A DNA stretch of 64,000 nucleotides from the NCBI GenBank assembly GCA_963798915.1, contig CAWCVB010000006.1, positions 192,001 through 256,000 on the forward strand, written 5' to 3'. The stretch's first letter is position 1. Every line of letters begins with the position of its first letter. Shown here piece after piece: positions 3,742 to 26,082 of the stretch. This DNA comes from an uncultured Gemmatimonadales bacterium. GTDB lineage: Bacteria > Gemmatimonadota > Gemmatimonadetes > Gemmatimonadales > GWC2-71-9. A program made the position numbers and the translations under genes. The notes under the pieces were generated by a model that was not told the origin of the DNA, did no database searches, and saw nothing but the letters and a program-made list of their open reading frames with translations.

Positions 3742-4865
3742 CAGCCCAGCGTCTCGGTATACAGGCGCTCGTACTGCGGCACCACTTCCTCGACCGAGTA
3801 CCGTTGCGCCTGCTTGATGCAGGCGGCGCGCATCGCCTCCCAACGGTGCCGATCACGCAACAGTTCCACGGCGCGGCGGCCCATCGCTTCCACACTCCCG
3901 ACCGGCTCCAGCAGTCCCGTGACACCATCCTCGACGACCTCGGGAATGCCACCAACGCTGGTCGCCACCACCGGCACGCCGCATGCCATGGCCTCCAGCG
4001 CGGCCAACCCGAAACTTTCCGTCTGGGAGGGCAGCACGAACAGGTCGGACGCCTGCAGCAGCGAAGCGACCGAGTCCAGCCGGCCCAGGAAGCGGACGTC
4101 TTCTCCCACTTCCAGCGAGCGCGCCTCGCGCTCGGCATCTTCCCGTTCCGGGCCATCACCCACCATCAGCAGGGTGGCCGGCATGGCGTGACGGATGCGC
4201 GCGAATACCCGCACGACGTCACGAACGCGCTTGACCTCGCGGAAATTGGACGTATGCATGATCACCTTGTGCCCGGCGGGCGCAACCTGGCCGCAGTTCG
4301 CTTCCGCCGCCGGGCGGTACTCCTCCAGGTTCACAAAATTCGGTATGACCCGGATGTCGCAGGAAATGCATCCGAACGCGCGGTAGGTCTCGTCGCGAAG
4401 ATGTCCCGAGACCGCCGTGACGCCGTCGGACTGCTCGATGGAGAATCGGGTAATGGCGAAGAAGCTGGCTTCCTGGCCCACCAGCGTGATGTCGGTGCCG
4501 TGCAACGTGGTGATAACCTTGACCGGCTGTTCCGCGCCCAGCATTTCCCGCGCAAGGAAGGCCGTCGTGGCATGCGGGATGGCATAGTGCACGTGCAGCA
4601 CGTCCAGCCGCTCCCGGAGCGCAACTTCATGCTGTTTGGAGGCCAGGGCCAGGGTATACGGGAAATGGTCGAACAGGGGGTACCGGCCCATGCGCGTATC
4701 CACTTCGTGGAAGTAGACCCGTTCGCTGTAGCCGTGCAGCCGGAAGGGCATGGCGTACGTGATGAAGTGGACTTCATGCCCCCTCCGAGCGAGGGCGAGC
4801 CCGAGCTCGGTCGCCAGGGCGCCGGAACCGCCGTAGGTGGGATAGCAGGTGATGCCTATCTTCAT
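3741..4865 (-). CDS. bshA: N-acetyl-alpha-D-glucosaminyl L-malate synthase (bacillithiol biosynthesis)
   Basis: Motifs KIGITCYPTYGGSG, LHVHYAIPHA, TTLHGTDITLVG, ESFGLAALEAM. Confidence 0.93.
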   Translation of the reverse strand: MKIGITCYPTYGGSGALATELGLALARRGHEVHFITYAMPFRLHGYSERVYFHEVDTRMGRYPLFDHFPYTLALASKQHEVALRERLDVLHVHYAIPHATTAFLAREMLGAEQPVKVITTLHGTDITLVGQEASFFAITRFSIEQSDGVTAVSGHLRDETYRAFGCISCDIRVIPNFVNLEEYRPAAEANCGQVAPAGHKVIMHTSNFREVKRVRDVVRVFARIRHAMPATLLMVGDGPEREDAEREARSLEVGEDVRFLGRLDSVASLLQASDLFVLPSQTESFGLAALEAMACGVPVVATSVGGIPEVVEDGVTGLLEPVGSVEAMGRRAVELLRDRHRWEAMRAACIKQAQRYSVEEVVPQYERLYTETLG

Positions 4866-5785
4866 GACTCCGTCCGGGACCAGAGGTGCGCGATCTCTGC
4901 GGCCAGCGTCTCCGGCCCGCGCGTCGCGTCAAGAGTAATGCGCTCGCCGGCAAGCTGGTTCCGGAACCAGGTTTCCTGGCGCTTGGCGTACTGGCGGGTG
5001 CTGATGACGATGTCGTCGACCAGGCCCTTCGACGGGCGTCGGCCATCCAGCACCGCGACGGCGTCCCGCACCCCGATCCCGTCCAGGCCAGGCGCATCAG
5101 GCCCCGCGCCCTCGGCCAGGACTGCGGCCACCTCGCCCATCAGTCCCCGCTGGATCATTTCGCGGGCCCTGCTCTCGATCCGCCGATGGAGGACCGACCT
5201 CGGCACTGTCAGCACGATGTACCACGGGTCGATCGCGCGCCCGGCTCGGGCGGCGCGTTGCCAATAGCTCAGCGACTGGCCGCTGAGGAGCGCCACTTCC
5301 ACGGCGCGCTGCGCGCGCTGGCGACCGCCGCCCCGAAACCCCGGGTCCAGTCGCGCCGCCCATCGCACCAGCTCGAGCGCTTCGCGCCGTGCCAGCCAGG
5401 CGTCCAGCCGACGGCGGGCGCCCGCATCGAGCGGCGGTTCGTGAAAGAGTCCCTCTGCGAGCGCACGCACGTAGAGGCCCGTGCCCCCGACCACCACCGG
5501 CATCGATCCGCGGGCCAGGATATCAGCCACGTATCCGGCCGCATCACGGGCAAAGCGTCCGGCGCTATAGCGTTCTCCCGGCGCGATGATGCCGATCCCA
5601 TGGTGCGGCACCCGGGAAAGTTCGCGTGCAGTGGGTTGGGCCGTGGCCACAGCGAGCCGGCGATAGACCTGTCGTGAGTCTGCGGAGACGACCTCGATCG
5701 GCCAGTGCTCTGCCAGTGCCAGCGCCACGGCGGTCTTTCCGATCCCCGTCGGGCCTACAAGGACAGGAATCCTAGCGACGGCCAA
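4862..5785 (-). CDS. miaA: tRNA dimethylallyltransferase
   Basis: Motifs GPTGIGKT, SADSRQVY, VGGTGLY, TRQYAKRQETWF; probable TTG start at 5785. Confidence 0.95.
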   Translation of the reverse strand: MAVARIPVLVGPTGIGKTAVALALAEHWPIEVVSADSRQVYRRLAVATAQPTARELSRVPHHGIGIIAPGERYSAGRFARDAAGYVADILARGSMPVVVGGTGLYVRALAEGLFHEPPLDAGARRRLDAWLARREALELVRWAARLDPGFRGGGRQRAQRAVEVALLSGQSLSYWQRAARAGRAIDPWYIVLTVPRSVLHRRIESRAREMIQRGLMGEVAAVLAEGAGPDAPGLDGIGVRDAVAVLDGRRPSKGLVDDIVISTRQYAKRQETWFRNQLAGERITLDATRGPETLAAEIAHLWSRTES

Positions 5786-7460
5786 ATCGGCGCTCCAGCT
5801 CCTCGCGTGGAAGCTGCACGATCGTTGCCCGTCCGTGCACGTCGTGCGGCGGCAGGGCCGTGCCGAAGAGTCGCGCGAGCAGGCCGCGCATCTCGTCCTG
5901 GCCCAGTTCCTCGCCGGCCTTGACCGCCGCGCGGCAGGCGTAGGTCGCGGCGAACCGCTCCAGGCCGCTGCTCCAGCCACCGAAGCGCCCACGCGCCAGA
6001 TCGGAGACAAGTTCCCGGAAGCAGCGCGCAGCATCGAAGCGCGGATGGGGCGCCGGTACCGCTTGCAGGATGACGCTTCGGCCGCCAAACGCGTCCACGG
6101 CAAAGCCCGCGCGCTCGAGCCACTCGCGATGCGCCTCCAGCGCATCGAGCTCCTCGTCCGTCAACTCGATCGTCATGGGAAGAAGCAATCGCTGGGAGGC
6201 CGCCCCCTGGCTGGTGAGCTGGCCCATGGCTTCTTCGTACAAGACGCGCTCGTGAGCCGAGTGCTGGTCCACGAAGACCAGCGCCTCTTCGCTCTCGTAA
6301 ACGATGTAGCTCCGGAAAAGCTGTCGTGGCAGACTTGCATTCGCACTCGCCGGACCCGCGACGTCGCCTCTCGGGTTCCGGTCCGACCCCAGCACGTCCG
6401 GCAACGCCAGCAGGGAGATCTCCGTTCCGGACGACGCGGGCATCGGCCTCCAGTCGCCGACTGGCACCGTTGCGGCGGACTGGCCAATAGCCAGCCGGAC
6501 CGCCTCTTCCACCGCACGCTCGGCGCCCAGCCGGTCGCGGAAGCGAACCTCCAGCTTGGCCGGATGAACATTCACGTCGACATCCGCAGGCGCAGTCGTG
6601 AGCTGGAGCAGCAACGAGGGTCGATCCCCCGGATGAATGGCGGCGCGATAGCCCGCCTCAGCGGCCCGCACCAGAAATGGATCGCGAAAGGGCCGGCCGT
6701 TGATGAAGAGTTGCACTCGCCGCCCGCTGGGGCGGGCGTCACCCGGCCGCTGGGCGAATCCGTCTACCCGGAAGCCGCCGACCGCATGCGCTACCGCCAC
6801 AAGCGTTCCGGCCATGTCTTCGCCCCAGACCGCCGCGAGGCGCTCTGCCGGTTCTTGCCCAGCAGGCACCGAGAGCCGACGGACGTTCTCGATCTCCAGC
6901 TCGAACCCCACGGCGGGATACGTCAGGGCGAGCGTCGCCACGACATCCGTGATGGCGCGCCCCTCGCTCGCGACCGAGCGCAGAAACTTCCGACGCGCGG
7001 GCGTGTTGAAGAAGAGTCCGCGGACAGCCACAGTCGTGCCCCGGGTGCGCGCGGCCGGTGTTGCGCCGTCCACGCGCCCGCCGGTCACCCGAACTTCGGT
7101 CGCGGCCTCGCCGTCGGAGGTCAGGAGCTCGAACCGTGAAACGGAGGCGATTGCCGGCAGGGCTTCGCCCCGGAACCCGAACGTGCTGACGCCGATCAGG
7201 TCCGCGGCGCTCTGGATCTTGCTGGTTGCGTGCCGGTCCAGCGCGAGCAGCGCGTCATCGCGATTCATGCCTTCGCCATCATCGGCCACTTCGATGAGGC
7301 TCTTGCCCCCCTGCTCCACCCGGATGCGTACCGCGCTGGCGCCGGCGTCGAGCGCATTTTCCGCCAGCTCCTTCACCACGCTGGCCGGACGCTCCACGAC
7401 CTCGCCCGCCGCGATCTGGTCGGCGACGGCGTCGGGAAGAATGCGAATCCGGCGAGTCAT
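5772..7460 (-). CDS. mutL: DNA mismatch repair endonuclease MutL
   Basis: Motifs IAAGEVVERPASVVKEL, GFRGEAL, DVNVHPAK and the endonuclease motif DQHSAHERVLYE. Confidence 0.97.
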   Translation of the reverse strand: MTRRIRILPDAVADQIAAGEVVERPASVVKELAENALDAGASAVRIRVEQGGKSLIEVADDGEGMNRDDALLALDRHATSKIQSAADLIGVSTFGFRGEALPAIASVSRFELLTSDGEAATEVRVTGGRVDGATPAARTRGTTVAVRGLFFNTPARRKFLRSVASEGRAITDVVATLALTYPAVGFELEIENVRRLSVPAGQEPAERLAAVWGEDMAGTLVAVAHAVGGFRVDGFAQRPGDARPSGRRVQLFINGRPFRDPFLVRAAEAGYRAAIHPGDRPSLLLQLTTAPADVDVNVHPAKLEVRFRDRLGAERAVEEAVRLAIGQSAATVPVGDWRPMPASSGTEISLLALPDVLGSDRNPRGDVAGPASANASLPRQLFRSYIVYESEEALVFVDQHSAHERVLYEEAMGQLTSQGAASQRLLLPMTIELTDEELDALEAHREWLERAGFAVDAFGGRSVILQAVPAPHPRFDAARCFRELVSDLARGRFGGWSSGLERFAATYACRAAVKAGEELGQDEMRGLLARLFGTALPPHDVHGRATIVQLPREELERRFGRR

Positions 7461-7469
7461 ATCCGAAAG

Positions 7470-9812
7470 CTACTCATCCACTCGTTCGACCGCGGATTCC
7501 GGCACCCAACCGGAATGACCAGCCACGTCGACCAGCCACCAGCCCGCACGCCGGCGGCGCAGTGACGCCGTCGTGCCGGGCGGCAGCATGCTCACTTCCG
7601 GGGCGCGACCGTGCGGTGATAGTCGCATCGGGCCTTCGTCCACGATGATGGCGGTTGGCCGATGGTATCTGGCAGCGACCTGCGCCGCGCCCAGGCCCGC
7701 GATAACCGCGACGCTCAACAGCATCACGGCCCGGAGGCGGAACCGGCGTCGATCGACAAAGACGAACGTCCAGCCAGTCAGCCAGGCGGCCAGGGCCAGC
7801 AGGCTCAATTCGTCTGGCGTCAGCGGCGCAACCCAGGTCATCCGTCGCGACCAGGAATCCGGCCCAGGTACAAGCGTCAGTGCCCGGCGAATGCTCGCTC
7901 GGCGCGGTCGCAACCGGGCGGCGTGCAGCCAGGCCGCGCGGGCTCGGGCGTCCGAGCCGAGCCGGTACTCGGCGGCGCCCAGTCCATACCAGTCGGCCGC
8001 GCTGGCATCCAGCGAGTGCGCCCGACGGGCAAAGCCCTCCGCCGCGGCCCGATACGCTCCGGAGGCGTACAGCGATTCTGGTCCCGGAACCTGGGGGTGC
8101 AGCGCCATCGGCGCGATCAATGCCAGTGGCACGAGCATGCCGAGCAGCCGGCGGCCCCGCCGCTCACGATGGCGCGCCTCGCCGCCCACGGCTCGCGTCA
8201 GCTCATCCATTTCCTGCGCGAGCTGTGCCTCGGTGGATCCTTCGCCTCTGTGGCCGTAGCGCACGGCAAGAAATTCATCGCGCACCGCGGCAATGCGCCG
8301 CGCGAGCGCGGCATCGAGCCCCGCCGCACGCAGCGCCGAGGTGAGGGCCGGGCCGGTGCGGACGTCCGCATCCGGTACCAGTGCCCGTAGCGCCGCGAGC
8401 AGGCGCCGGTCGGAGCGTGGCAGGTCGGGTGCGAGGTCGCTGGCCCGCCGGCGAAAACGTCCGTGGTACCAGTCGCGCGTTTCCAGCCCGCCCCAGAGCG
8501 CCAGGGGGAGCAGGGCCAGGAGCAGCCACACAGGCAGCGGCACGCCACGCCAGACGGACCGGGCAATGGGCCTGTGCCCAACCTGAAACAGCGGTGGGGG
8601 TGAGGGACGAGAAGCTTCGCTCTCGGAAGCCGGAGCGACATTGATGATCGCAGCCGGCGCGGTCAGGGTGTGGTAGGTTGCATCACCCAAGTCAAAATAC
8701 GAATACTGAAGCCCGTGCAGGCGAAGCGGTCCGGCCGAATCGGGAAGTGCCAGATACCTGAAGGTCTTGGTGCCTCCCAGCAGACCGTCGTTGCTCTCCA
8801 TGCGATCGTCGGCGCGATCCTGGTAGTGCCGCAGTGTGACCGGCCACTCGATGCCGGGCGCCGGCCACAGCGCAACATTGCCGCTCCCCGCGAGGCGGAC
8901 TTCGACCGGGACCACCTGCCCCGCGCTGCCCGTGGCGGGTACGGTGCGTTCGAGGCGAAGATGGCGTCCCACGGCGCCGGCAAAACCGGACGGGCGACCA
9001 GCGTCCGGCAACGGCCGAACCGTCAGCTGTGCGGAGTTGCTCTCGAGCGAATACCGCTCTTCCTGACTGAAGAACTGCATGGCGACCGGGACGCTGTACT
9101 GCAGGGTCGCCTTCGCGATATCCACGCTCCCCGGCACCAGCGGAAACACGATCTGGTACGACACGAACAGGTCGTACCAGGTATCGCCCACTTTTCGGCT
9201 ATCGGCGATTCCGGGCGGCGTCGGCTGGGGATAACTCCAGACCCCGGACAATGAGGGTGGCGTGAGCGTCGGTGGCCGGCGAAGCCGTGCTCGCAGGTCG
9301 CGCGGAAACCAGGCGGCGGTGACCACGTCCACTTGCTCGCCGACGTAGATACGATCGGCGGAAATGAGCAGCGTCAGTTCGGGTTGGCCGGCGTGCCGCG
9401 GTGGCGGCGCTCTGCGCAGCATGGCGAGGAGTCGTGGATTGAGGGCCGGTGCGCTACCGGACCCGGCCTGGACCTGCACCGAAACGAAGCCGGTCTTGGC
9501 CCGGCGTCCCGACTGCTCGATCTCGAACGGTCCCAGCCGGAAGGTCCCCGCCCTGAGGGCGCTGAGTTCCAGCTCCAGCGTCGTGGTACGCGCGGTCGAG
9601 TCGCTGACGGCCACGGCCGTCTGCTCGCTGCGCGCAAGCACCTGGAAGCCATCGAGGGACGGAAGAATCACCCGAATTGGTGCCGACGAGCGGCTGGTCG
9701 CGGTCACGGTCAGCGTCAGATCCTCGCCGACGGCCAGCCGCGAGCGATCAAGCGTGGCCGTCACCGTGGGCGCCTGGCCCTGGAACGCGACCAGCAACAG
9801 GAGGCCGATCAC
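7470..9812 (-). CDS. BatD-like protein with fused C-terminal BatE-like TPR and SH3-like region
   Basis: Signal peptide, Ig-like BatD repeats (VTATLDR...VGE, FAGAVG), TM segment, TPR-like segment, C-terminal GWVP; position in the MoxR/VWA cluster. Confidence 0.8.
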   Translation of the reverse strand: MIGLLLLVAFQGQAPTVTATLDRSRLAVGEDLTLTVTATSRSSAPIRVILPSLDGFQVLARSEQTAVAVSDSTARTTTLELELSALRAGTFRLGPFEIEQSGRRAKTGFVSVQVQAGSGSAPALNPRLLAMLRRAPPPRHAGQPELTLLISADRIYVGEQVDVVTAAWFPRDLRARLRRPPTLTPPSLSGVWSYPQPTPPGIADSRKVGDTWYDLFVSYQIVFPLVPGSVDIAKATLQYSVPVAMQFFSQEERYSLESNSAQLTVRPLPDAGRPSGFAGAVGRHLRLERTVPATGSAGQVVPVEVRLAGSGNVALWPAPGIEWPVTLRHYQDRADDRMESNDGLLGGTKTFRYLALPDSAGPLRLHGLQYSYFDLGDATYHTLTAPAAIINVAPASESEASRPSPPPLFQVGHRPIARSVWRGVPLPVWLLLALLPLALWGGLETRDWYHGRFRRRASDLAPDLPRSDRRLLAALRALVPDADVRTGPALTSALRAAGLDAALARRIAAVRDEFLAVRYGHRGEGSTEAQLAQEMDELTRAVGGEARHRERRGRRLLGMLVPLALIAPMALHPQVPGPESLYASGAYRAAAEGFARRAHSLDASAADWYGLGAAEYRLGSDARARAAWLHAARLRPRRASIRRALTLVPGPDSWSRRMTWVAPLTPDELSLLALAAWLTGWTFVFVDRRRFRLRAVMLLSVAVIAGLGAAQVAARYHRPTAIIVDEGPMRLSPHGRAPEVSMLPPGTTASLRRRRAGWWLVDVAGHSGWVPESAVERVDE

Positions 9813-11431
9813 CAATCCTTCACTCCCGAGGCGCTGCTTTGCATCCGGCGCTGCTGGTCGGCACGCGTCTGTCGTTCCTCGCGTGACATCGATTCGAGAA
9901 TCTGCTCCGCCTGTGCCTGCGTCATGCCGCCGCTCGAGGGAGGAGGTGGCTGCGGCGTGCCTCCGCCTCCACCACCTCCACCGCCGCCACCGCCACCGGA
10001 CTGGGGAGGCGGCTCCGGCGGACGAAGCCGCTCAGCCAGCTCGAGGTTCCACTTGGCCCGGGCCGAACCGGGCTCGAGCAGCAATGCCTGCCGCAGATTG
10101 GCGGTCGCAGACTCCAACAGCTTGGAGCGCGCGCTGCTGTCGGCCCGCGCCGCAAGCAGGTCCACCACGCCAAGATTATAGAGTGCGCGATAGCGGAGCG
10201 ACGGGTCCAGCGACCTGGCCGCTTCGCCGAGCGCCCGGCGTGCCACGTCCATCCGGCCGGCACGCAGGGCCGCCGTCCCGGCATTGTAGAACGCCGTGTC
10301 ACGCGCCACGGCCCCGGCCGCTGCGTCGAGAAACGCCTTCGCTGCCTCGTCCGGCTGGCCCTGGGCCATGGCGCGGGCGCCGGCTGAGGGACGCTGCGCC
10401 AGCAGGCTCGGGGGGCGTGCCATCAACAGGGCGAGAGCGAGCAGTGAGGCCCCACGCCGGCTTAAAGTCTGCAGCAGCAGCAGCACCGCCGCGGCGAGCA
10501 GCGGGATCCACGCGCGAGGCAGCAGGTCGCTGGCGCGGGTCTCGGTCGTGGGGCTGCGCTTGAAATTGGCCAGCAGGCCGCGTACGGCACCCGCCTGGTC
10601 GGGCGCGTCAGCAGGCACCAGCGTTCCGTCGCTTGCCTCGGCCAGCCGCTCGAGCACTTCATCGACCCGGCGAGTCTCGACCGGAACGCCACTCTGGTCG
10701 AGCTTGTATTCGACCAGTGTGCCGGCGCTGTCCCGGATCGGGATTCGCACCGGAGCGGACCCACCTTCCGCCACGAACACCACGCGGATGTGCTGTGCCC
10801 TCAATTCGGCGGCAGCCTCGACTGCCGAGGCAAGGCTGTCGTGCATCTCTCCATCGGTGAAGATCACCAGGACGCGGTCTCCCACTTCTCCTGATGCCAG
10901 CAGCAGTTGCCCGCCCTGGGAAAGCACGGCGCTGAGGTTGGTGCCGCCAGTACTGGCCAGGTCCGGGTCGAGGGCGTCCAGGTACATCCGGACCGCGCCG
11001 CCATCGACCGTCAGCGGCGTCAGGATGTAGCTGCTGCCCGCGAAGGCAATGACGCCCAGGCGGTCGCCACGGCTGTCCTGAACCAGGCGTCGTGCCTCCC
11101 GCAACGCTCGCTCGAGGCGACTGGGTGAGGCATCTTCCGCCAGCATGGAGCGGCTGATGTCCACAGCAAGCACGAGACTCAGGGCGTGCGATTCGGTGGT
11201 CACGCGAGCTTGGCCGCCCCGCGGCCCGGCCAGCGCGGTCAGCCCCAGCAGCACCACCAAGGCGAGCAGTGGCGCCGTCCATCGACTGCTGCGCCCCGTG
11301 CGCGCCGCCAGGTCGGGCGACCAGGCCCTGGCGAGCCGGATTCTTTTTCGGCGAGCCAGCAGCAGCCACACCCCGACGACGATGGCGACCAGGGGCGCGA
11401 CGAACAGCAGCGCGGGTGATTCGAAGATCAT
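9809..11431 (-). CDS. VWA domain protein, BatB-BatC-like fusion with TPR
   Basis: MIDAS motif DISRSM, PLTVD, FTDGE; TPR motifs YNAG/YNLG; NLELA; C-terminal KDW typical of BatC. Confidence 0.85.
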   Translation of the reverse strand: MIFESPALLFVAPLVAIVVGVWLLLARRKRIRLARAWSPDLAARTGRSSRWTAPLLALVVLLGLTALAGPRGGQARVTTESHALSLVLAVDISRSMLAEDASPSRLERALREARRLVQDSRGDRLGVIAFAGSSYILTPLTVDGGAVRMYLDALDPDLASTGGTNLSAVLSQGGQLLLASGEVGDRVLVIFTDGEMHDSLASAVEAAAELRAQHIRVVFVAEGGSAPVRIPIRDSAGTLVEYKLDQSGVPVETRRVDEVLERLAEASDGTLVPADAPDQAGAVRGLLANFKRSPTTETRASDLLPRAWIPLLAAAVLLLLQTLSRRGASLLALALLMARPPSLLAQRPSAGARAMAQGQPDEAAKAFLDAAAGAVARDTAFYNAGTAALRAGRMDVARRALGEAARSLDPSLRYRALYNLGVVDLLAARADSSARSKLLESATANLRQALLLEPGSARAKWNLELAERLRPPEPPPQSGGGGGGGGGGGGGTPQPPPPSSGGMTQAQAEQILESMSREERQTRADQQRRMQSSASGVKDW

Positions 11432-21766: not shown

Positions 21767-22302
21767 TCCCCGCCCCGGGCGAGCTCGACGACGTCCCTCC
21801 CGTCGAGCTCCGAGACCAGGACGTCCACCCGTTCATCGGCCGTCGGGCTGACAGTAACGCCGACAACGTCGGCCTGAATGGGCAGTTCCCGGCCGCCGCG
21901 ATCCACAAGCACGGCAAGCAGGATGCGCTTCGGCCGCCCGAAGTCGGTGCACTCGTCGAGGGCTGCCCGCACGGTCCGGCCGGTGTAGAGCACGTCATCG
22001 ACGATGATCACTGTCCGTGCATCCAGCTCCGGCAGGCTGGTCTCGCCCACCACCGGCTTGGGGCCGATGGTCTGCAGGTCGTCGCGGTAGAGGGTGATGT
22101 CGAGCTTGCCGCAGGGGATGTTGGTCCGCTCCACCTTGTCGATGAGGCGCTTGATCCGGTAGGCGAGTTCCACGCCCCGGCGCTGGATCCCGACCAGGAC
22201 CAGGCCGTCGGTTCCCCCGGAACGCTCGACCACTTCGGACGCCATGCGCGCGAGGGTGCGCGCGATAGCGCGCTCATCAAGGAGTTCGGTCCGGGTGGGC
22301 AC
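21763..22302 (-). CDS. pyrR: Bifunctional pyr regulator / uracil phosphoribosyltransferase
   Basis: Motifs [37 protein letters not shown] start at 22302. Confidence 0.95.
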
Positions 22303-22393
22303 GGCGAGGAATGTAGCACCGCCCGCCGACAGGGTACAGCGCTCGGCAGCCGAGAGTCGAACGCGACCGCTGCGTCGGGCGAATACCGCCCCT

Positions 22394-22421
22394 GACTCAA
22401 GGCCCACGACCCACGACCCAT
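22394..22421. repeat. 7-bp-period tract (4x GACCCAC-like)
   Basis: GACTCAA GGCCCAC GACCCAC GACCCAT, just 3' of tRNA-Ser(GGA). Confidence 0.55.
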
Positions 22422-22423
22422 CA

Positions 22424-22511
22424 CGGACAGGGCGGGATTCGAACCCGCGAAACGGGGTTGCCGCTTACGCGCTTTCCAGGCGCGCCTCTTCAACCACTCG
22501 AGCACCTGTCC
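22424..22511 (-). tRNA. tRNA-Ser(GGA), no encoded CCA
   Basis: GGACAGG/CCTGTCC acceptor stem, anticodon arm CGCGC-CTGGAAA-GCGCG, long variable arm, GGTTCGAATC T-loop, G discriminator. Confidence 0.97.
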
Positions 22512-22562
22512 CGGTGGCCCCTGACAGGGCGGCGGCAACATAGCGGGCGCAGGACAGAGACG

Positions 22563-22901
22563 TCAACCGGCTGCCGCGCTTCGGCGGGCAGCCGCCACAC
22601 GTCCTGCCCGCTCCAGCACCGCACTGGACGAGCCATCGGCCTCGGCGCTCGCCAGGAGCCCCGCCAAACCGTAGCCAAGACCCTTCATCGGATTGCGCCA
22701 GAGAATGGAGCCCGTCACCGGCGCGAGGGCAAAGATCTCTCCGCGCGCGCTCGCGTAGAGCATGGCGCCATCCGTCACGACATGGACAAATTCACTTCCC
22801 TTGAGCCGGGTCCGCCAGCGCTCATGTCCAGTAGCCTTGTCGAGCCCGACGACGTGCCCCCGGATTCCAGCGAACAACATGTCCTTTGGCAGACCAGCCA
22901 T
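22563..22901 (-). CDS. Small protein with two PQQ-type beta-propeller repeats
   Basis: Repeats VVGLDKATGHERW and IFALAPVTGSILW match the AxDxxTGxxxW blade motif. Confidence 0.75.
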   Translation of the reverse strand: MAGLPKDMLFAGIRGHVVGLDKATGHERWRTRLKGSEFVHVVTDGAMLYASARGEIFALAPVTGSILWRNPMKGLGYGLAGLLASAEADGSSSAVLERAGRVAAARRSAAAG

Positions 22902-23143
22902 CAGAGCTCCTCAGGTCCGGTGTTGCGGGCGGTACGATCCGCGCGCCAGATGGCGACGCCAAGCCCGGTCAGGCCGACGGCGAGAAACATGAGACCTGGC
23001 GCCGGCCGGGGAAACCCATCGTCCGGCGGCGGGCAGGTGCCCGTCTCGAGACAGTAGCTCCGCTGGCCAATGTCATCCATGCCGCGCGGTGCGTTGGGGA
23101 CGACTGCCTGCAAGAGTACGGCTGAAAGCATCACGCTGATCAT
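22901..23143 (-). CDS. Small hypothetical protein (hydrophobic N-terminus, CxxxxxC, Pro-rich linker, C-terminal TM)
   Basis: 80-aa ORF whose TGA overlaps the next ATG (TGATG); organised protein-like architecture. Confidence 0.6.
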   Translation of the reverse strand: MISVMLSAVLLQAVVPNAPRGMDDIGQRSYCLETGTCPPPDDGFPRPAPGLMFLAVGLTGLGVAIWRADRTARNTGPEEL

Positions 23144-23204
23144 GAGGAACAATTACTTGATTCTTCACGATATTGCGAGCGGCTTCCGATCATCGTTCCG
23201 GCCG

Positions 23205-24533
23205 ATGACACCTCCAGTAACCTCGGTCGGGGCCCGGCGCGCGCTGCCGCAGCAGGGCGCCGCGCCCTCGCCGCCGCCATTCTCGTTGCTTGTTGCTCAC
23301 TTCGGACTGCTGGTTTCCAGCCTGCTCCTCGGAAGCCTGGGCCTGGTGCGCGTGGCCCCACTGCTTGCGACAGGAAACTTCCTGGCGCCTCGCGTCCTCG
23401 CTGTCGTGCACCTGTTCACACTCGGGGTGATACTGACCGCGATCGCGGGGGTGCTCCAGCAATTCTATCCGATGGCGCTCGGCTGGGGCCTCCGCAGTGT
23501 CCGAGTAGCGTTCCTCGGTGTCGGTCTGCTGATGCTCGGTGTCACGTCAGTTGCATCAGGGTTCTGGTTCTGGCATCCGGTGCTGCTCGGCACGGGCTGG
23601 ATCCTCCTGGTTGGTGCGGTGGGGTGCGTGTCCTGGAACCTGCTGCCCGCCCGGCGACGCTCACCACAGGCTCGATTTGTCGGTGGCCTCGTCAGCGCCG
23701 GTCACGTGGCGCTGGGTTTTGCCATGCTGTTCGCGGCCATTCGCATCGGAGACCTGCTTGGCTGGTGGACCGCAGACCGTCTCGGTACCATCGCGGCGCA
23801 CTACCACCTGGCCGGGCTGGGGTTTGGCACGCTCACCGCGCTCGGCATCGGCTCCCGCATGCTCCCGATGTTTCTGGTAGCTGAGGGAGCACCCGCCAGG
23901 CCCGTCCCATGGATTGCCGCCTTCGCGGCCATTGGACTGGCCTGCTTCTCGATCGGTGCCCCACTGCGGGTGAGATGGCTGGTGTGGCTGGGCGCCTCCT
24001 TCATGTTCGCCGCGGTGCTGACCCATGTCGCCGTCGCGCAGCGATACTTCCGCCGGCGCCTGCGCCGGCAGCTCGATCCGGCCATGCAGTTTGTCAGAAT
24101 GGCGTTCATCAATCTTCTGGCAGCGGCGCTAGCCGGCGCCGTGCTCCTGTTGGCGCCGCGCTTCCACTCGTCGCTGTGGATCGTCTATGGTCTGCTCGGC
24201 CTTCTGGGCTGGCTGGTGACCTTGATCATGGGGATCCTGCAGAAACTGGTGCCGCACCTGACCCGGATGCGGCTCTTTGTGCGGACCGGCCAGCCCATTC
24301 CGGCCGCCGACACCCTGATGGATCCCATGCTGGGGCGGATCTCGCTGATTGGCATGGAGAGCGGCCTGATCGCACTGGTGAGCGGGGTCGTCATGGTCAG
24401 CGCGAGCGTGACCACGCTTGGTGCACTGCTCTGGCTCGCCGGGATCCTCCTCGTCGTTGCGCAGTTTGTTCGCATTCCACTCATGGCCCGGGGCTGGTGC
24501 CCGCTGCCGAGTGAGGATGGAAGTGAGAAGTAG
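23205..24533 (+). CDS. Polytopic (~12 TM) membrane protein, NnrS/heme-copper-oxidase-like internal repeats
   Basis: Three repeated segments HLFTLG...QFYP, HYHLAGLG...RMLP and YGLLGLLG...KLVP; probable ATG at 23205. Confidence 0.7.
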   Translation: MTPPVTSVGARRALPQQGAAPSPPPFSLLVAHFGLLVSSLLLGSLGLVRVAPLLATGNFLAPRVLAVVHLFTLGVILTAIAGVLQQFYPMALGWGLRSVRVAFLGVGLLMLGVTSVASGFWFWHPVLLGTGWILLVGAVGCVSWNLLPARRRSPQARFVGGLVSAGHVALGFAMLFAAIRIGDLLGWWTADRLGTIAAHYHLAGLGFGTLTALGIGSRMLPMFLVAEGAPARPVPWIAAFAAIGLACFSIGAPLRVRWLVWLGASFMFAAVLTHVAVAQRYFRRRLRRQLDPAMQFVRMAFINLLAAALAGAVLLLAPRFHSSLWIVYGLLGLLGWLVTLIMGILQKLVPHLTRMRLFVRTGQPIPAADTLMDPMLGRISLIGMESGLIALVSGVVMVSASVTTLGALLWLAGILLVVAQFVRIPLMARGWCPLPSEDGSEK

Positions 24534-24589
24534 GAAGGGAGAAGTGGGAAGTAGGAAGTGGGAAGTGAGAAGTCGAAAATTGGACGTCA
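24520..24589. repeat. Purine-rich heptamer tandem repeat (GAAGTRR) x8 plus 2 degenerate units
   Basis: GAAGTGA GAAGTAG GAAGGGA GAAGTGG GAAGTAG GAAGTGG GAAGTGA GAAGTCG AAAATTG GACGTCA. Confidence 0.9.
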
Positions 24590-24631
24590 TGATGCTGGAA
24601 GTCGAATGCCACCACTTTGGAGGGCTGACGC

Positions 24632-24850
24632 ATGCACCGAGATGTTACCGCCGAGATTGGGCCGACCCTCACCCTCCGCGAGCTGGTAGCGGTCCGGCCC
24701 GAAACCCGCGCTGTCCTGACCGAGCACGGGATGGATGCCTGCTGCGGAGGTGACCTGACGATCGAGCAGGCCGCCAAGGTGCACGGCGTGGAGTTGGGAG
24801 CGTTGCTCGAGAAGTTGAAGGCGGCGCCGCGCCAAGCGCACTGCGGCTAG
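24632..24850 (+). CDS. Stand-alone DUF542/ScdA_N (Ric N-terminal-like) domain protein
   Basis: TLRELV...AVLTEHGMDACCGGDLTIEQAAKVHGV matches the GxDxCCGG motif; RBS GGAGG. Confidence 0.85.
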   Translation: MHRDVTAEIGPTLTLRELVAVRPETRAVLTEHGMDACCGGDLTIEQAAKVHGVELGALLEKLKAAPRQAHCG

Positions 24851-24864
24851 CGCACTGCCCATGG

Positions 24865-25230
24865 CGCGCAGCGGGCGGAGGCCGCCGGAGGGAGCATAGC
24901 GACCGCAGGTGAACCCTCGGCGTCCAAGCCGATCACGCACCAGACTGTTCCTGAAGGACAGCGGACAGGGAGGGATTCGAGCCGGAGCCCGCGCGGCGGG
25001 CGGAGGCCACCGGAGGGAGCATAGCGACCGCAGGTGAACCCTCGGCGTCCAAGCCGATCACGCACCAGACTGTTCCTGAAGGACAGCGGACAGGGAGGGA
25101 TTCGAGCCGGAGCCCGCGCGGCGGGCGGAGGCCACCGGAGGGAGCATAGCGACCGCAGGTGAACCCTCGGCGTCCAAGCCGATCACGCACCAGACTGTTC
25201 CTGAAGGACAGCGGACAGGGAGGGATTCGA
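24865..25230 (-). repeat. tRNA-linked tandem repeat, 125-bp period, ~2.9 copies, sharing the 3' 19 nt of tRNA-Ser(CGA)
   Basis: GCGGACAGGGAGGGATTCGA occurs at 24961, 25086 and 25211; two identical full units plus one truncated unit with 2 substitutions. Confidence 0.97.
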
Positions 25231-25298
25231 ACCCTCGATACCCTTGCGGGTATGGCGGTTTTCGAGACCGCTACCTTCAGCCACTCGGTCACCTGTCC
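25212..25298 (-). tRNA. tRNA-Ser(CGA), no encoded CCA
   Basis: GGACAGG/CCTGTCC acceptor stem, anticodon arm GCGGT-CTCGAAA-ACCGC, long variable arm, GGTTCGAATC. Confidence 0.97.
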
Positions 25299-25485
25299 AG
25301 CGCCGGCCCCAGGGCCAGCGGCGCGAATTGTATACCGGCGACGACAGGTTTTCCAGCGCTGCCTCCGCCCTCCACCCTTGGCGTCACCTGAAGCGAAGTT
25401 CACCCATCGCTCACGTGAGTTTCAGCCGTCCGAGGCTATGTAAGAGGGGCCGATACCGTCGCAACCCGCCTCAGAGGAGGTCCCC

Positions 25486-25887
25486 ATGCCGGTCTCCGCG
25501 CTGATGAAGTCACCCGCATTCACCATCGAGCAGGACGCCACCATCGCCGAAGCCATCATCACGCTGGCCGACGAACATATCTCGGCTCTGCCCGTCGTCG
25601 ACCACGCGGGCAAGCTCGTGGGAATGCTATCCACGACTGATATCCTGCAGGCAGCGTCAGAATTGAACGAGGGCGAGGGCCGGGACATGCTCTTCGACCG
25701 CACCACGGCCGGCGACCTGATGACACGGCACGTGGTCACCGTCGGCATCGACGCCTCCTTGCATGAGGCCGCGCGCCTGATGCTCTATGGCGCCGTGCAC
25801 CGCCTGGTCGTGACGGACAACGATGCGCCGCTCGGGGTGATCTCCCAGACCGACCTGGTAGCTGCATTCGCTACCGGACGGGTGTGA
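25486..25887 (+). CDS. CBS domain-pair protein
   Basis: Motifs ISALPVVD..GKLVGMLSTTDI and HRLVVTD..PLGVISQTDL; RBS GAGGAGG. Confidence 0.92.
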   Translation: MPVSALMKSPAFTIEQDATIAEAIITLADEHISALPVVDHAGKLVGMLSTTDILQAASELNEGEGRDMLFDRTTAGDLMTRHVVTVGIDASLHEAARLMLYGAVHRLVVTDNDAPLGVISQTDLVAAFATGRV

Positions 25888-26082
25888 TAGACCGAGCCCG
25901 CCTGGCATCCTGCCCTGAGGCCGAACGCCAGCCGCGGCGTTCCCGCTGGGAACGCCAACCGGGGTTTTCTCTGGCGCGCAGCAGGACCATCGTTCGAGCG
26001 TGACCGGCATGGGCGTCAGGGCGGCGCGGAGGTCTGCCATGCCTCGCCCTGCTCCCGGCGCCGGTGACGGGAGGATACGAAA

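Follow-up and report, generated by a model that had tools for sequence, protein, structure and literature searches.

A tandem array that shares the 3' end of tRNA-Ser(CGA) as a candidate tRNA-linked repeat of Gemmatimonadales

Introduction

What is a 125-nt sequence that is repeated head-to-tail directly 3' of a serine tRNA gene and that ends, in each complete copy, with the last 19 nt of that tRNA? The question is raised by a minus-strand locus in the 64,000-nt stretch of DNA from an uncultured Gemmatimonadales bacterium that was analysed here (hereafter, the window). A preliminary description of the locus compared it with the repeats at Escherichia coli tyrT and offered two readings, namely a co-transcribed array that is processed into small RNAs or a tiny nonautonomous element at a tRNA att site.

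According to a study on E. coli tRNA-linked repeats (TLRs), E. coli K-12 contains 22 TLRs at ten loci with one to five copies per locus, and the 3'-terminal 18–19 bp of a TLR repeat exactly those with which the upstream tRNA or rRNA gene ends (PMC8144298). [quoted passage not shown] As the authors propose it, the repeat of the 3' end serves as the RNase E processing signal; they also state that the claim of a stringent-response role for the tyrT TLR has been retracted and that TLRs have no known function so far (PMC8144298). Older work is cited here through that source (Egan & Landy 1978; Bosl & Kersten 1991; Rudd 1999; all in PMC8144298).

Results

Anatomy of the array

Two serine tRNA genes, both called by ARAGORN and Rfam, lie on the minus strand: tRNA-Ser(CGA) at 25298..25212 (3' end at 25212/25211; Rfam tRNA score of 56.1 bits) and tRNA-Ser(GGA) at 22511..22424. 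Directly 3' of tRNA-Ser(CGA), a 125-nt unit is repeated head-to-tail on the same strand, and Tandem Repeats Finder describes the array (24865-25230) with a period of 125, 2.9 copies, 99% matches and a score of 718. Each full unit ends in the 19-nt 3' end of the tRNA, and the array therefore starts inside tRNA-Ser(CGA), whose last 19 nt (25230-25212, minus strand) constitute the first copy of the tail. The resulting layout is (19 + 106) x 2 + 19 + 97 nt.

Unit 1 occupies 25087..25211 and unit 2 occupies 24962..25086, with its tail at 24980-24962 (both minus strand; each scores 76 bits with covariance model R1, described below). A base-by-base comparison of 25210-25086 with 25085-24961 gives 100% identity between the two units over 125 nt, and a perfect repeat of this length cannot have originated by chance. 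Unit 3 (24865..24961, minus strand; R1 score of 41.3 bits over 24837-24919) is partial. It comprises the elements that we designate hp0, CGAGGGT, hp1 and the first half of hp2 and has neither linker nor tail. Unit 3 agrees with the full units over 96 nt except for two substitutions (unit positions 77 and 91), and the similarity is gone from unit position 97, which corresponds to position 24865/24864 of the window. Given these two substitutions and a unique junction in unit 3, at least two unit-level copies are independently supported.

Both full units terminate with TCGAATCCCTCCCTGTCCG, which is identical at 19 of 19 positions to tRNA-Ser(CGA) from T55, the second base of the T-loop, to the discriminator G and deviates from tRNA-Ser(GGA) of the window by one mismatch. 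CCA is encoded neither after tRNA-Ser(CGA) nor after the tails, where the next bases are CTG. The tRNA-derived parts within the units are confined to split T-arm pieces and the acceptor 3' strand; ARAGORN and Rfam find no tRNA match inside the units, and the two genes named above are the only genuine tRNAs called. A blastn search for the 106-nt body detects no further copy within the 64-kb window. The two identical units, the partial third unit with two substitutions and the tRNA-derived ends of the preliminary description are confirmed, and the recent amplification or homogenization that it suggested is supported by the identity of units 1 and 2.

Genomic neighbourhood

The array sits between convergent genes. 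A 72-aa ScdA_N/DUF542 gene (24632..24850, plus strand; PF04405, E 3.4e-12) converges on it, with its stop codon 14 nt from the end of unit 3; this gene bounds the array and is not part of it. The neighbours are ordinary chromosomal genes, that is, pyrB, pyrR, a PQQ-like fragment and genes for a 487-aa membrane protein, a CBS-domain protein and a phosphoribosyltransferase. The window PyrB is 81–89% identical to loci from MAGs labelled Gemmatimonadales, with 89% as the best value among the fetched loci. Atlas look-alikes of the 487-aa membrane protein are commonest in Gemmatimonadota.

A promoter-like site, consisting of TGGAAA, a 17-nt spacer and TACAAT, lies ~29 nt upstream of the tRNA gene (25327..25355, minus strand). 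This site is a consensus match only, with one occurrence found versus 0.2 expected in shuffles. Between tRNA-Ser(CGA) and the array, no terminator-like site was found. The preliminary statement that the window encodes no mobilizing enzyme agrees with our scan, in which no integrase or transposase family appeared among the 47 best ORFs of the window (8 + 40 ORFs in two sets, with one ORF common to both).

Homologous units in relatives

Genomes of species representatives were scanned with a pattern that consists of the tRNA-Ser(CGA) anticodon loop, a gap and the T-arm plus acceptor strand. The scan gave at least 119 loci, with full flanks for 80 and ~655 nt for the others, and 82 of them derive from Gemmatimonadales or Gemmatimonadota MAGs; L081 is a duplicate of L074, and a single MAG supplied both L007 and L118. 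Besides the window, 6 of the 82 Gemmatimonadales loci among the matches listed carry homologous units behind tRNA-Ser(CGA) or tRNA-Ser(GGA), a proportion that describes a sample and not a census because the pattern required one exact 3' half of the tRNA. The preliminary description named a lack of homologous tRNA-linked units elsewhere among the findings that would speak against it, and such units exist behind two tRNA-Ser isoacceptors.

Copy number ranges from one to ~3 per locus (2.9 in the window). L075 contains one unit behind the CGA gene and one behind the GGA gene. L009 has at least 1.3 units behind the CGA gene, where the contig ends inside the array, and also a unit behind the GGA gene. 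At least 2.2 units follow the CGA gene of L117, whose contig starts inside the array, and 1.7 units follow the GGA gene of L035. L089 harbours a copy with a decayed tail, and L103 harbours a short form of the unit. In the window and all relatives, the units start right at the tRNA 3' end and share the orientation of tRNA-Ser, and the 19-mer recurs 121–127 nt downstream of tRNA-Ser in the unit-bearing loci. Tail identity is 19/19 in the units of L009 (CGA), L035, L075 (both units) and L117 (both units), the CGA tails being all identical by construction of the search pattern; it is 18/19 in the GGA unit of L009, which carries the variant of its own tRNA.

Covariance model R1 was built from nine units and was searched against the window and the 82 loci (83 sources, 872 kb). 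R1 returned 10 full-length matches (64–98 bits), all directly behind tRNA-Ser, and also recognized L103 and, as partial terminal units, unit 3 of the window and the second unit of L035. Five weak matches have E values of 0.09–0.97; four of them fall on tRNA-Ser genes or partial copies, and the fifth is L031 45-104. Among the matches listed from these 83 sources, there is no full-length unit away from tRNA-Ser. A generic tail test, which asked whether the last 16–19 nt of a tRNA, 5S rRNA or tmRNA are repeated no more than 400 nt downstream and not as part of another tRNA, was applied to 121 sources and covered just four non-Ser tRNAs from the scanned genomes. As far as sampled, the family is restricted to Gemmatimonadales tRNA-Ser genes.

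Several other repeats of the tRNA end were considered. In two alphaproteobacterial MAGs (L040 and L113), partial tails occur behind tRNA-Ser and are closed by an upstream complementary strand. A Eubacteriales locus (L101) was rejected as a family member, given that its tail repeats, with spacings of 121 and 146 nt, are more extensive pieces of a tRNA and of another kind. Kilobase-scale tail repeats were likewise rejected as integrase islands: most of them are the neighbouring tRNA-Ser(GGA) gene, those of L060 and L074 bound duplicated Ser/Thr-kinase-TPR genes without an integrase, and that of L078 bounds 2.2 kb without a recombinase family. Among 20 of the 25 ORFs picked in L009, L035 and L075, no integrase or transposase was found; the five ORFs left out lie in L035, >1.6 kb from the tRNA.

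Structure of the unit

The unit is arranged in the order hp0, CGAGGGT(T), hp1, CCCTCC, hp2, linker (T)CCGGG and 19-nt tail. hp0 consists of ~42 variable nt right after the tRNA end and usually forms a hairpin, which is weak in unit 1 of the window (25211-25195, minus strand, as for all elements of unit 1 below). At the same place, the unit-less relatives L036, L041, L078 and L105 have a hairpin and a T-rich stretch. CGAGGGT(T) is identical to the tRNA T-stem 5' strand and the first base of the T-loop (CGAGGGT at 25169-25163 in unit 1). The hp1 hairpin region (25168-25127) has a 4-bp outer stem, an internal loop with conserved TGC/TC and a 6-bp inner stem, two pairs of which are mismatched in the window. 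hp2 is a GC hairpin with a 3-nt loop (25126-25112) and is followed by the linker (25111-25106) and the tail (25105-25087).

hp1 and hp2 are maintained through compensatory substitutions. In eight distinct sequences, 91.4% of the stem cells are paired, and 7 of 22 pairs have changed on both sides. The covariation score is 0.32, compared with 0.138 in shuffles, none of 500 of which reaches 0.32, and slid partners give at most 0.19. In contrast to the covarying stems, the TGC on the 5' side of the hp1 internal loop never varies. The stem cells include seven G-U versus five A-C combinations, a ratio that leaves room for hairpins acting in DNA or on the opposite strand.

The thermodynamic excess is modest in the relatives. 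Seven of the eight family units fold below the shuffle mean (z of -0.26 to -2.76), with the window unit as the exception (z of +0.50, or +0.94 in a shifted register), which has no excess stability. In six of eight single-sequence folds, GAGGG pairs with the inner CCCTC and not with the tail. The pairing between the tail and the upstream strand lacks covariation support because the relevant columns never vary. An acceptor-like 5' strand was dismissed as a family feature, as GGAC is found in the window and arguably in L075 and is not found in L117, L035 or L009.

Evolutionary behaviour of the units

In L009, the GGA tRNA has a T-stem variant, and both this tRNA and the tail of its unit carry CCCTTCC. 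The shared variant, the only informative one among the tails, indicates that the tail tracks the adjacent tRNA gene.

Units within one genome resemble each other unevenly. hp1 is nearer within a genome (41/41 in L075 and 38/44 in L009) than between genomes (46–88% identical), and the within-genome identity is 70% (L075) and 48% (L009) for hp0 and 82% (L075) and 62% (L009) for hp2. This mosaic suggests concerted evolution rather than fresh whole-unit transposition.

The seven unit-bearing genomes, including that of the window, have six different tRNA-Ser(CGA) sequences. Thirteen loci form the largest group with one and the same tRNA, and L009 is alone among them in having a unit behind its CGA gene. 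Such a patchy distribution is as compatible with an element that is dispensable or selfish as with a functional RNA. A small ORF begins 1 nt past the tRNA in L085 and L077, and its L075 homologue begins 2 nt past the unit tail; the unit with its tail is thus a clean 125-nt presence/absence difference. Insertion and precise loss via recombination between tails would both yield this pattern. Terminal units tend to lose the tail, as in unit 3 of the window and the second unit of L035. Since hp1 is partly broken in the window, its array may be decaying and yet recently amplified.

Comparison with E. coli tRNA-linked repeats

We compared the window with the E. coli region NC_000913 1285800-1288300. 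Downstream of tyrV, tandem repeats of 178 nt are present in 3.1 copies. The Rfam family RtT (RF00391) has four E. coli matches of 133–138 bits, three behind tyrV and one between tyrT and tyrV, and every RtT copy ends in the last 19 nt of tRNA-Tyr, from the T-loop and with CCA included. The 3' end of the annotated rttR RNA is the end of the first tail. The E. coli analogy drawn in the preliminary description is therefore borne out by the tyrV repeats, and it agrees with PMC8144298.

The E. coli repeats at tyrT and tyrV and the array in the window resemble each other in position, tail, copy number and internal organization. Both immediately follow a tRNA gene on its 3' side and share its orientation, with the discriminator of tRNA-Ser(CGA) as the last base before unit 1 of the window. 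Both have a 19-nt tail that equals the tRNA 3' end and begins inside the T-loop, identical at 19/19 positions in both full units of the window. The copy numbers are comparable (3.1 in E. coli and 2.9 in the window, within the range of one to five copies per locus of TLRs), and the last unit is partial in both cases. RtT, like the window unit, contains GC-rich hairpins and a second, inner T-stem 5' strand that runs on into the first part of the T-loop and, in RtT, lies ~75 nt ahead of the tail, so that the T-arm is split. The Rfam consensus of RtT pairs the tail with an upstream G-rich strand, and the minimum-energy fold of the window unit also pairs the tail with an upstream strand (GGAC...GAGGG). 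The Gemmatimonadales units follow both tRNA-Ser(CGA) and tRNA-Ser(GGA) (L009, L035 and L075), with one informative tail variant, and E. coli TLRs similarly follow more than one stable-RNA gene, with a tail that matches each (PMC8144298).

The two groups also differ. The unit length is 125 nt in the window versus 178 nt in E. coli, and the tail starts at T55 in the window versus A58 in E. coli. Unlike the E. coli tail, the window tail has no CCA because CCA is not encoded by the tRNA-Ser(CGA) gene. The Gemmatimonadales family, recognized from sequence alone, is known only behind tRNA-Ser(CGA/GGA) and belongs to a phylum other than that of E. coli. RtT has no match at E<=1 in 22000-26000 of the window (gathering score of 45 bits); the Rfam matches at E<=1 in this region, other than the two tRNAs, are just weak sX4 and plastid 3'UTR matches, all on the tRNA genes. 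In view of the missing RtT match, the likeness to the E. coli TLRs is architectural, and homology is not shown.

A second E. coli arrangement is similar to several relatives. RrA, RrB and RrF lie between the dual terminators of rrnA, rrnB and rrnD in the order gene, hairpin/terminator, body, 3'-end copy and hairpin (PMC8144298). L009, L117 and L089 likewise have a strong hp0 directly after the tRNA and again after each tail. RrA, RrB and RrF follow 5S rRNA (PMC8144298), whereas the Gemmatimonadales units follow tRNA-Ser.

Discussion

We propose with moderate confidence that the array is a TLR like those at E. coli tyrT and that its family, which is specific to Gemmatimonadales tRNA-Ser genes, is unrelated to them in sequence. 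By analogy with E. coli, transcription from the tRNA promoter would continue into the units. The tail and its upstream complement GAGGG (with GGAC added in the window) would jointly provide the 3'-end maturation signal that the tRNA itself has. tRNA genes without an encoded CCA are generally served by RNase Z-type cleavage after the discriminator, and such a cut at each tail could release structured RNAs of unit length whose 3' end is tRNA-like. The 3'-end processing signal of the tail is probably borrowed from the tRNA, and we infer co-transcription and processing of the array from the comparison with the E. coli repeats. Copy number may shift through unequal recombination or slippage between units, and whole units could be lost precisely through recombination between the 19-nt tails. 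To our knowledge, 3'ETS-leuZ is not repeated, and its 3' end is no copy of the tRNA 3' end. As a functional RNA that is excisable from the 3' trailer of a tRNA precursor (PMC8144298), it nonetheless resembles the proposed unit RNA, which might be excised from such a trailer as well.

Does the array need an RNA role at all? A neutral by-product could look similar, if a tandem duplication bounded inside the tRNA were combined with terminator or insulator hairpins, vertical inheritance and gene conversion. We consider this plausible though rather unlikely, and a number of observations agree with it. L074 has two 3-kb Ser/Thr-kinase-TPR copies, each ending in a partial tRNA copy, and L060 has one, with no recombinase in either; hp0 takes the place of the hairpin and T-rich stretch of the unit-less relatives, which would suit a terminator, as would the position of the array between convergent genes. 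The damaged hp1 of the window, the lack of excess stability of its unit and the loss of tails from terminal units point in the same direction. However, two tRNA genes, in genomes with six different tRNA-Ser(CGA) sequences, are followed by one and the same linker-tail junction (at T55) and arrangement of parts, and the internal-loop bases of hp1 stay invariant while the stems covary. Moreover, the 125 nt of L075 form a clean insertion relative to L085 and L077, with a body that does not come from the local flank. A wholly different concern is that assembly has multiplied a single unit. Reads and k-mers are typically longer than the identical 125-bp units, which can be miscounted, and the L117 and L009 contigs break inside their arrays, but the substitutions and the unique junction of unit 3 and the presence of more than one unit in L117, L035 and L009 make this very improbable. 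An assembly error could alter the copy number only, and the element is real whatever the exact count.

The alternative that the array is a miniature nonautonomous integrative element or att scar, in which a 125-bp attP-like module was integrated by a tyrosine integrase encoded elsewhere and was later amplified, appears quite improbable to us. Its appeal lies in the tail, which runs from the T-loop to the tRNA end; recombination there leaves an intact tRNA and a downstream direct repeat, much as attL and attR flank an insert with a direct repeat of the tRNA 3' part from the loop. A general T-loop class of integrases is known. The occupied site of L075 versus the empty sites of L085 and L077, the patchy distribution across tRNA variants and the closer likeness of hp1 within a genome than between genomes are also expected from such an element, and L083 has an ORF fragment a few nt from the same tRNA that matches Phage_integrase (E 4e-5, 23.9 bits, below the 27.1 cutoff). 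A precedent is phage Ms6, whose attB lies in the T-loop of a tRNA-Ala gene (PMC1762012). Unlike an attL/attR pair, however, the array consists of tandem identical units with a 106-nt insert that has no cargo, and neither the 47 best ORFs of the window nor the 20 of 25 ORFs from L009, L035 and L075 include a recombinase. No full-length R1 match lies off tRNA-Ser in 872 kb, and the window has no second copy. The tail variant of L009 is that of its own tRNA, which again is unlike attL/attR: a crossover would require an element that already had the variant. Units within a genome are mosaics, with hp1 identical and hp0 and hp2 divergent, and a 125-bp circle is a poor recombination substrate. The att-site element of the preliminary description thus retains the empty/occupied pattern in its favour and loses ground on the integrase or transposase that is missing nearby and on the absence of units away from tRNA-Ser. 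Judged by the E. coli analogy, a co-transcribed and processed array would fit the known class better than an att-site element does.

Tandem tRNA pseudogenes are known from a Photobacterium operon, on which the literature searched contained nothing relevant. That literature also describes no TLR-type elements outside enterics. The findings are best filed as a new TLR-type family, found in Gemmatimonadales and unrelated in sequence to the E. coli TLRs, within the already known TLR class. A second family with the same hallmarks (19-nt tail, split T-arm, hairpins and tandem copies) and with an unrelated sequence in a distant phylum argues that the architecture derives from a general process, or is maintained by one, and is no accident of E. 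coli.

What would such a process produce? We put forward as a speculation, and a doubtful one, that TLR-type elements are a widespread and repeatedly evolved class of operon-embedded sRNAs that copy the 3' end of the upstream gene and that the Gemmatimonadales RNA is a tRNA-Ser decoy. If so, the copy would serve to borrow the 3'-end maturation of the upstream stable RNA. hp2, the degenerate T-arm and the acceptor 3' strand would then mimic the 3' third of tRNA-Ser, with its long variable arm, T-arm and acceptor strand, and the released RNA would be a decoy for an enzyme that reads this third. The partial tails of L040 and L113 would be further independent cases. Covarying stems, invariant loop bases and decaying terminal tails can help to distinguish between the tail as a processing signal, as a recombination site and as a decoy.

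The array also has consequences for assembly and annotation. Three minus-strand ORFs (24933-25403, 24847-25065 and 24587-24940) cross it, and a coding reading was considered and rejected; two of these ORFs were scanned and have no Pfam family, and no repeated peptide is encoded because the 125-nt period is not a multiple of 3 and the frame shifts between units. Arrays of this type break short-read assemblies, as in L117 and L009, whose contigs end inside them, and create spurious ORFs across the tRNA gene.

tRNA-Ser(CGA) remnants and a possible integration site

Partial copies of tRNA-Ser(CGA), each running from the anticodon loop through the 3' end, bound long DNA segments at two loci from the tRNA-Ser(CGA)-anchored genome scan, L074 (positions 4095-10055) and L060 (10001-15626). 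Each bounded segment spans 3-5.6 kb and encodes a TPR-repeat-containing Ser/Thr protein kinase; in L074 two such kinase-TPR segments are arranged in tandem. No integrase is found in the bounded segments of L074 and L060. These segments are segmental duplications with one boundary within the tRNA gene.

The tRNA gene may also serve as an integration site in the clade. At the scan locus L083, of which 655 nt is covered, an ORF fragment on the minus strand (362-655) that stops a few nucleotides from the 3' end of tRNA-Ser(CGA) weakly matches Phage_integrase (E 4e-5), with a score of 23.9 bits that falls below the cutoff of 27.1.

The tRNA-remnant array in L101, a locus from an Eubacteriales MAG, is of another, more complex kind. 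In this locus (335-620), tRNA-Ser(CGA) is followed by two more copies of its last 19 nt at spacings of 121 and 146 nt. The first copy sits within a longer partial tRNA copy that begins in the anticodon stem, and the second is preceded by the reverse complement of the T-arm from another tRNA.

Elements resembling tRNA-linked repeats

Two alphaproteobacterial loci, L040 from a Rickettsiales MAG and L113 from an Alphaproteobacteria MAG, exhibit a hairpin-rich stretch 107-164 nt downstream of tRNA-Ser(CGA). This stretch is preceded by a canonical terminator, and its end reproduces part of the tRNA tail (12-14 of 15 nt). In the minimum-energy fold, the partial tail pairs with a complementary G-rich strand upstream, and this predicted pairing resembles the closing helix of RtT, the Rfam family of the tyrT/tyrV tRNA-linked repeats (TLRs) of Escherichia coli. 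The two stretches may represent TLR-like elements in a third lineage. In E. coli K-12, the tyrT-tyrV spacer holds another RtT copy, the fourth, 34 nt upstream of tyrV (L120, 1564-1695). This copy has a 19-nt tail of its own and no annotation in the E. coli K-12 record.

Other features adjoining tRNA-Ser genes

A small ORF on the minus strand of the window (22901-23152), placed between tRNA-Ser(CGA) and tRNA-Ser(GGA), belongs to a family of ~65-85 aa with members in L085, L077, L075, L032, L033, L046, L079 and L116. Family members share a conserved Cys-rich motif followed by a C-terminus that contains PAPG and is hydrophobic and Arg-rich, and in many relatives no more than 1-2 nt separate the ORF start from the tRNA-Ser(CGA) 3' end.

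Blocks of 7-nt repeats occur in intergenic DNA adjoining tRNA-Ser genes in the window and in L014, L075, L106, L114, L035 and L009, and may constitute a clade-specific intergenic repeat family. The window contains a GGAAGTG-type block of 7.9 copies (24519-24573) and a second block of 2.6 copies directly after tRNA-Ser(GGA) (22403-22420). In L075, the heptamer block is positioned after the GGA unit, and the arrays of relatives often flank a GC hairpin in inverted orientation.
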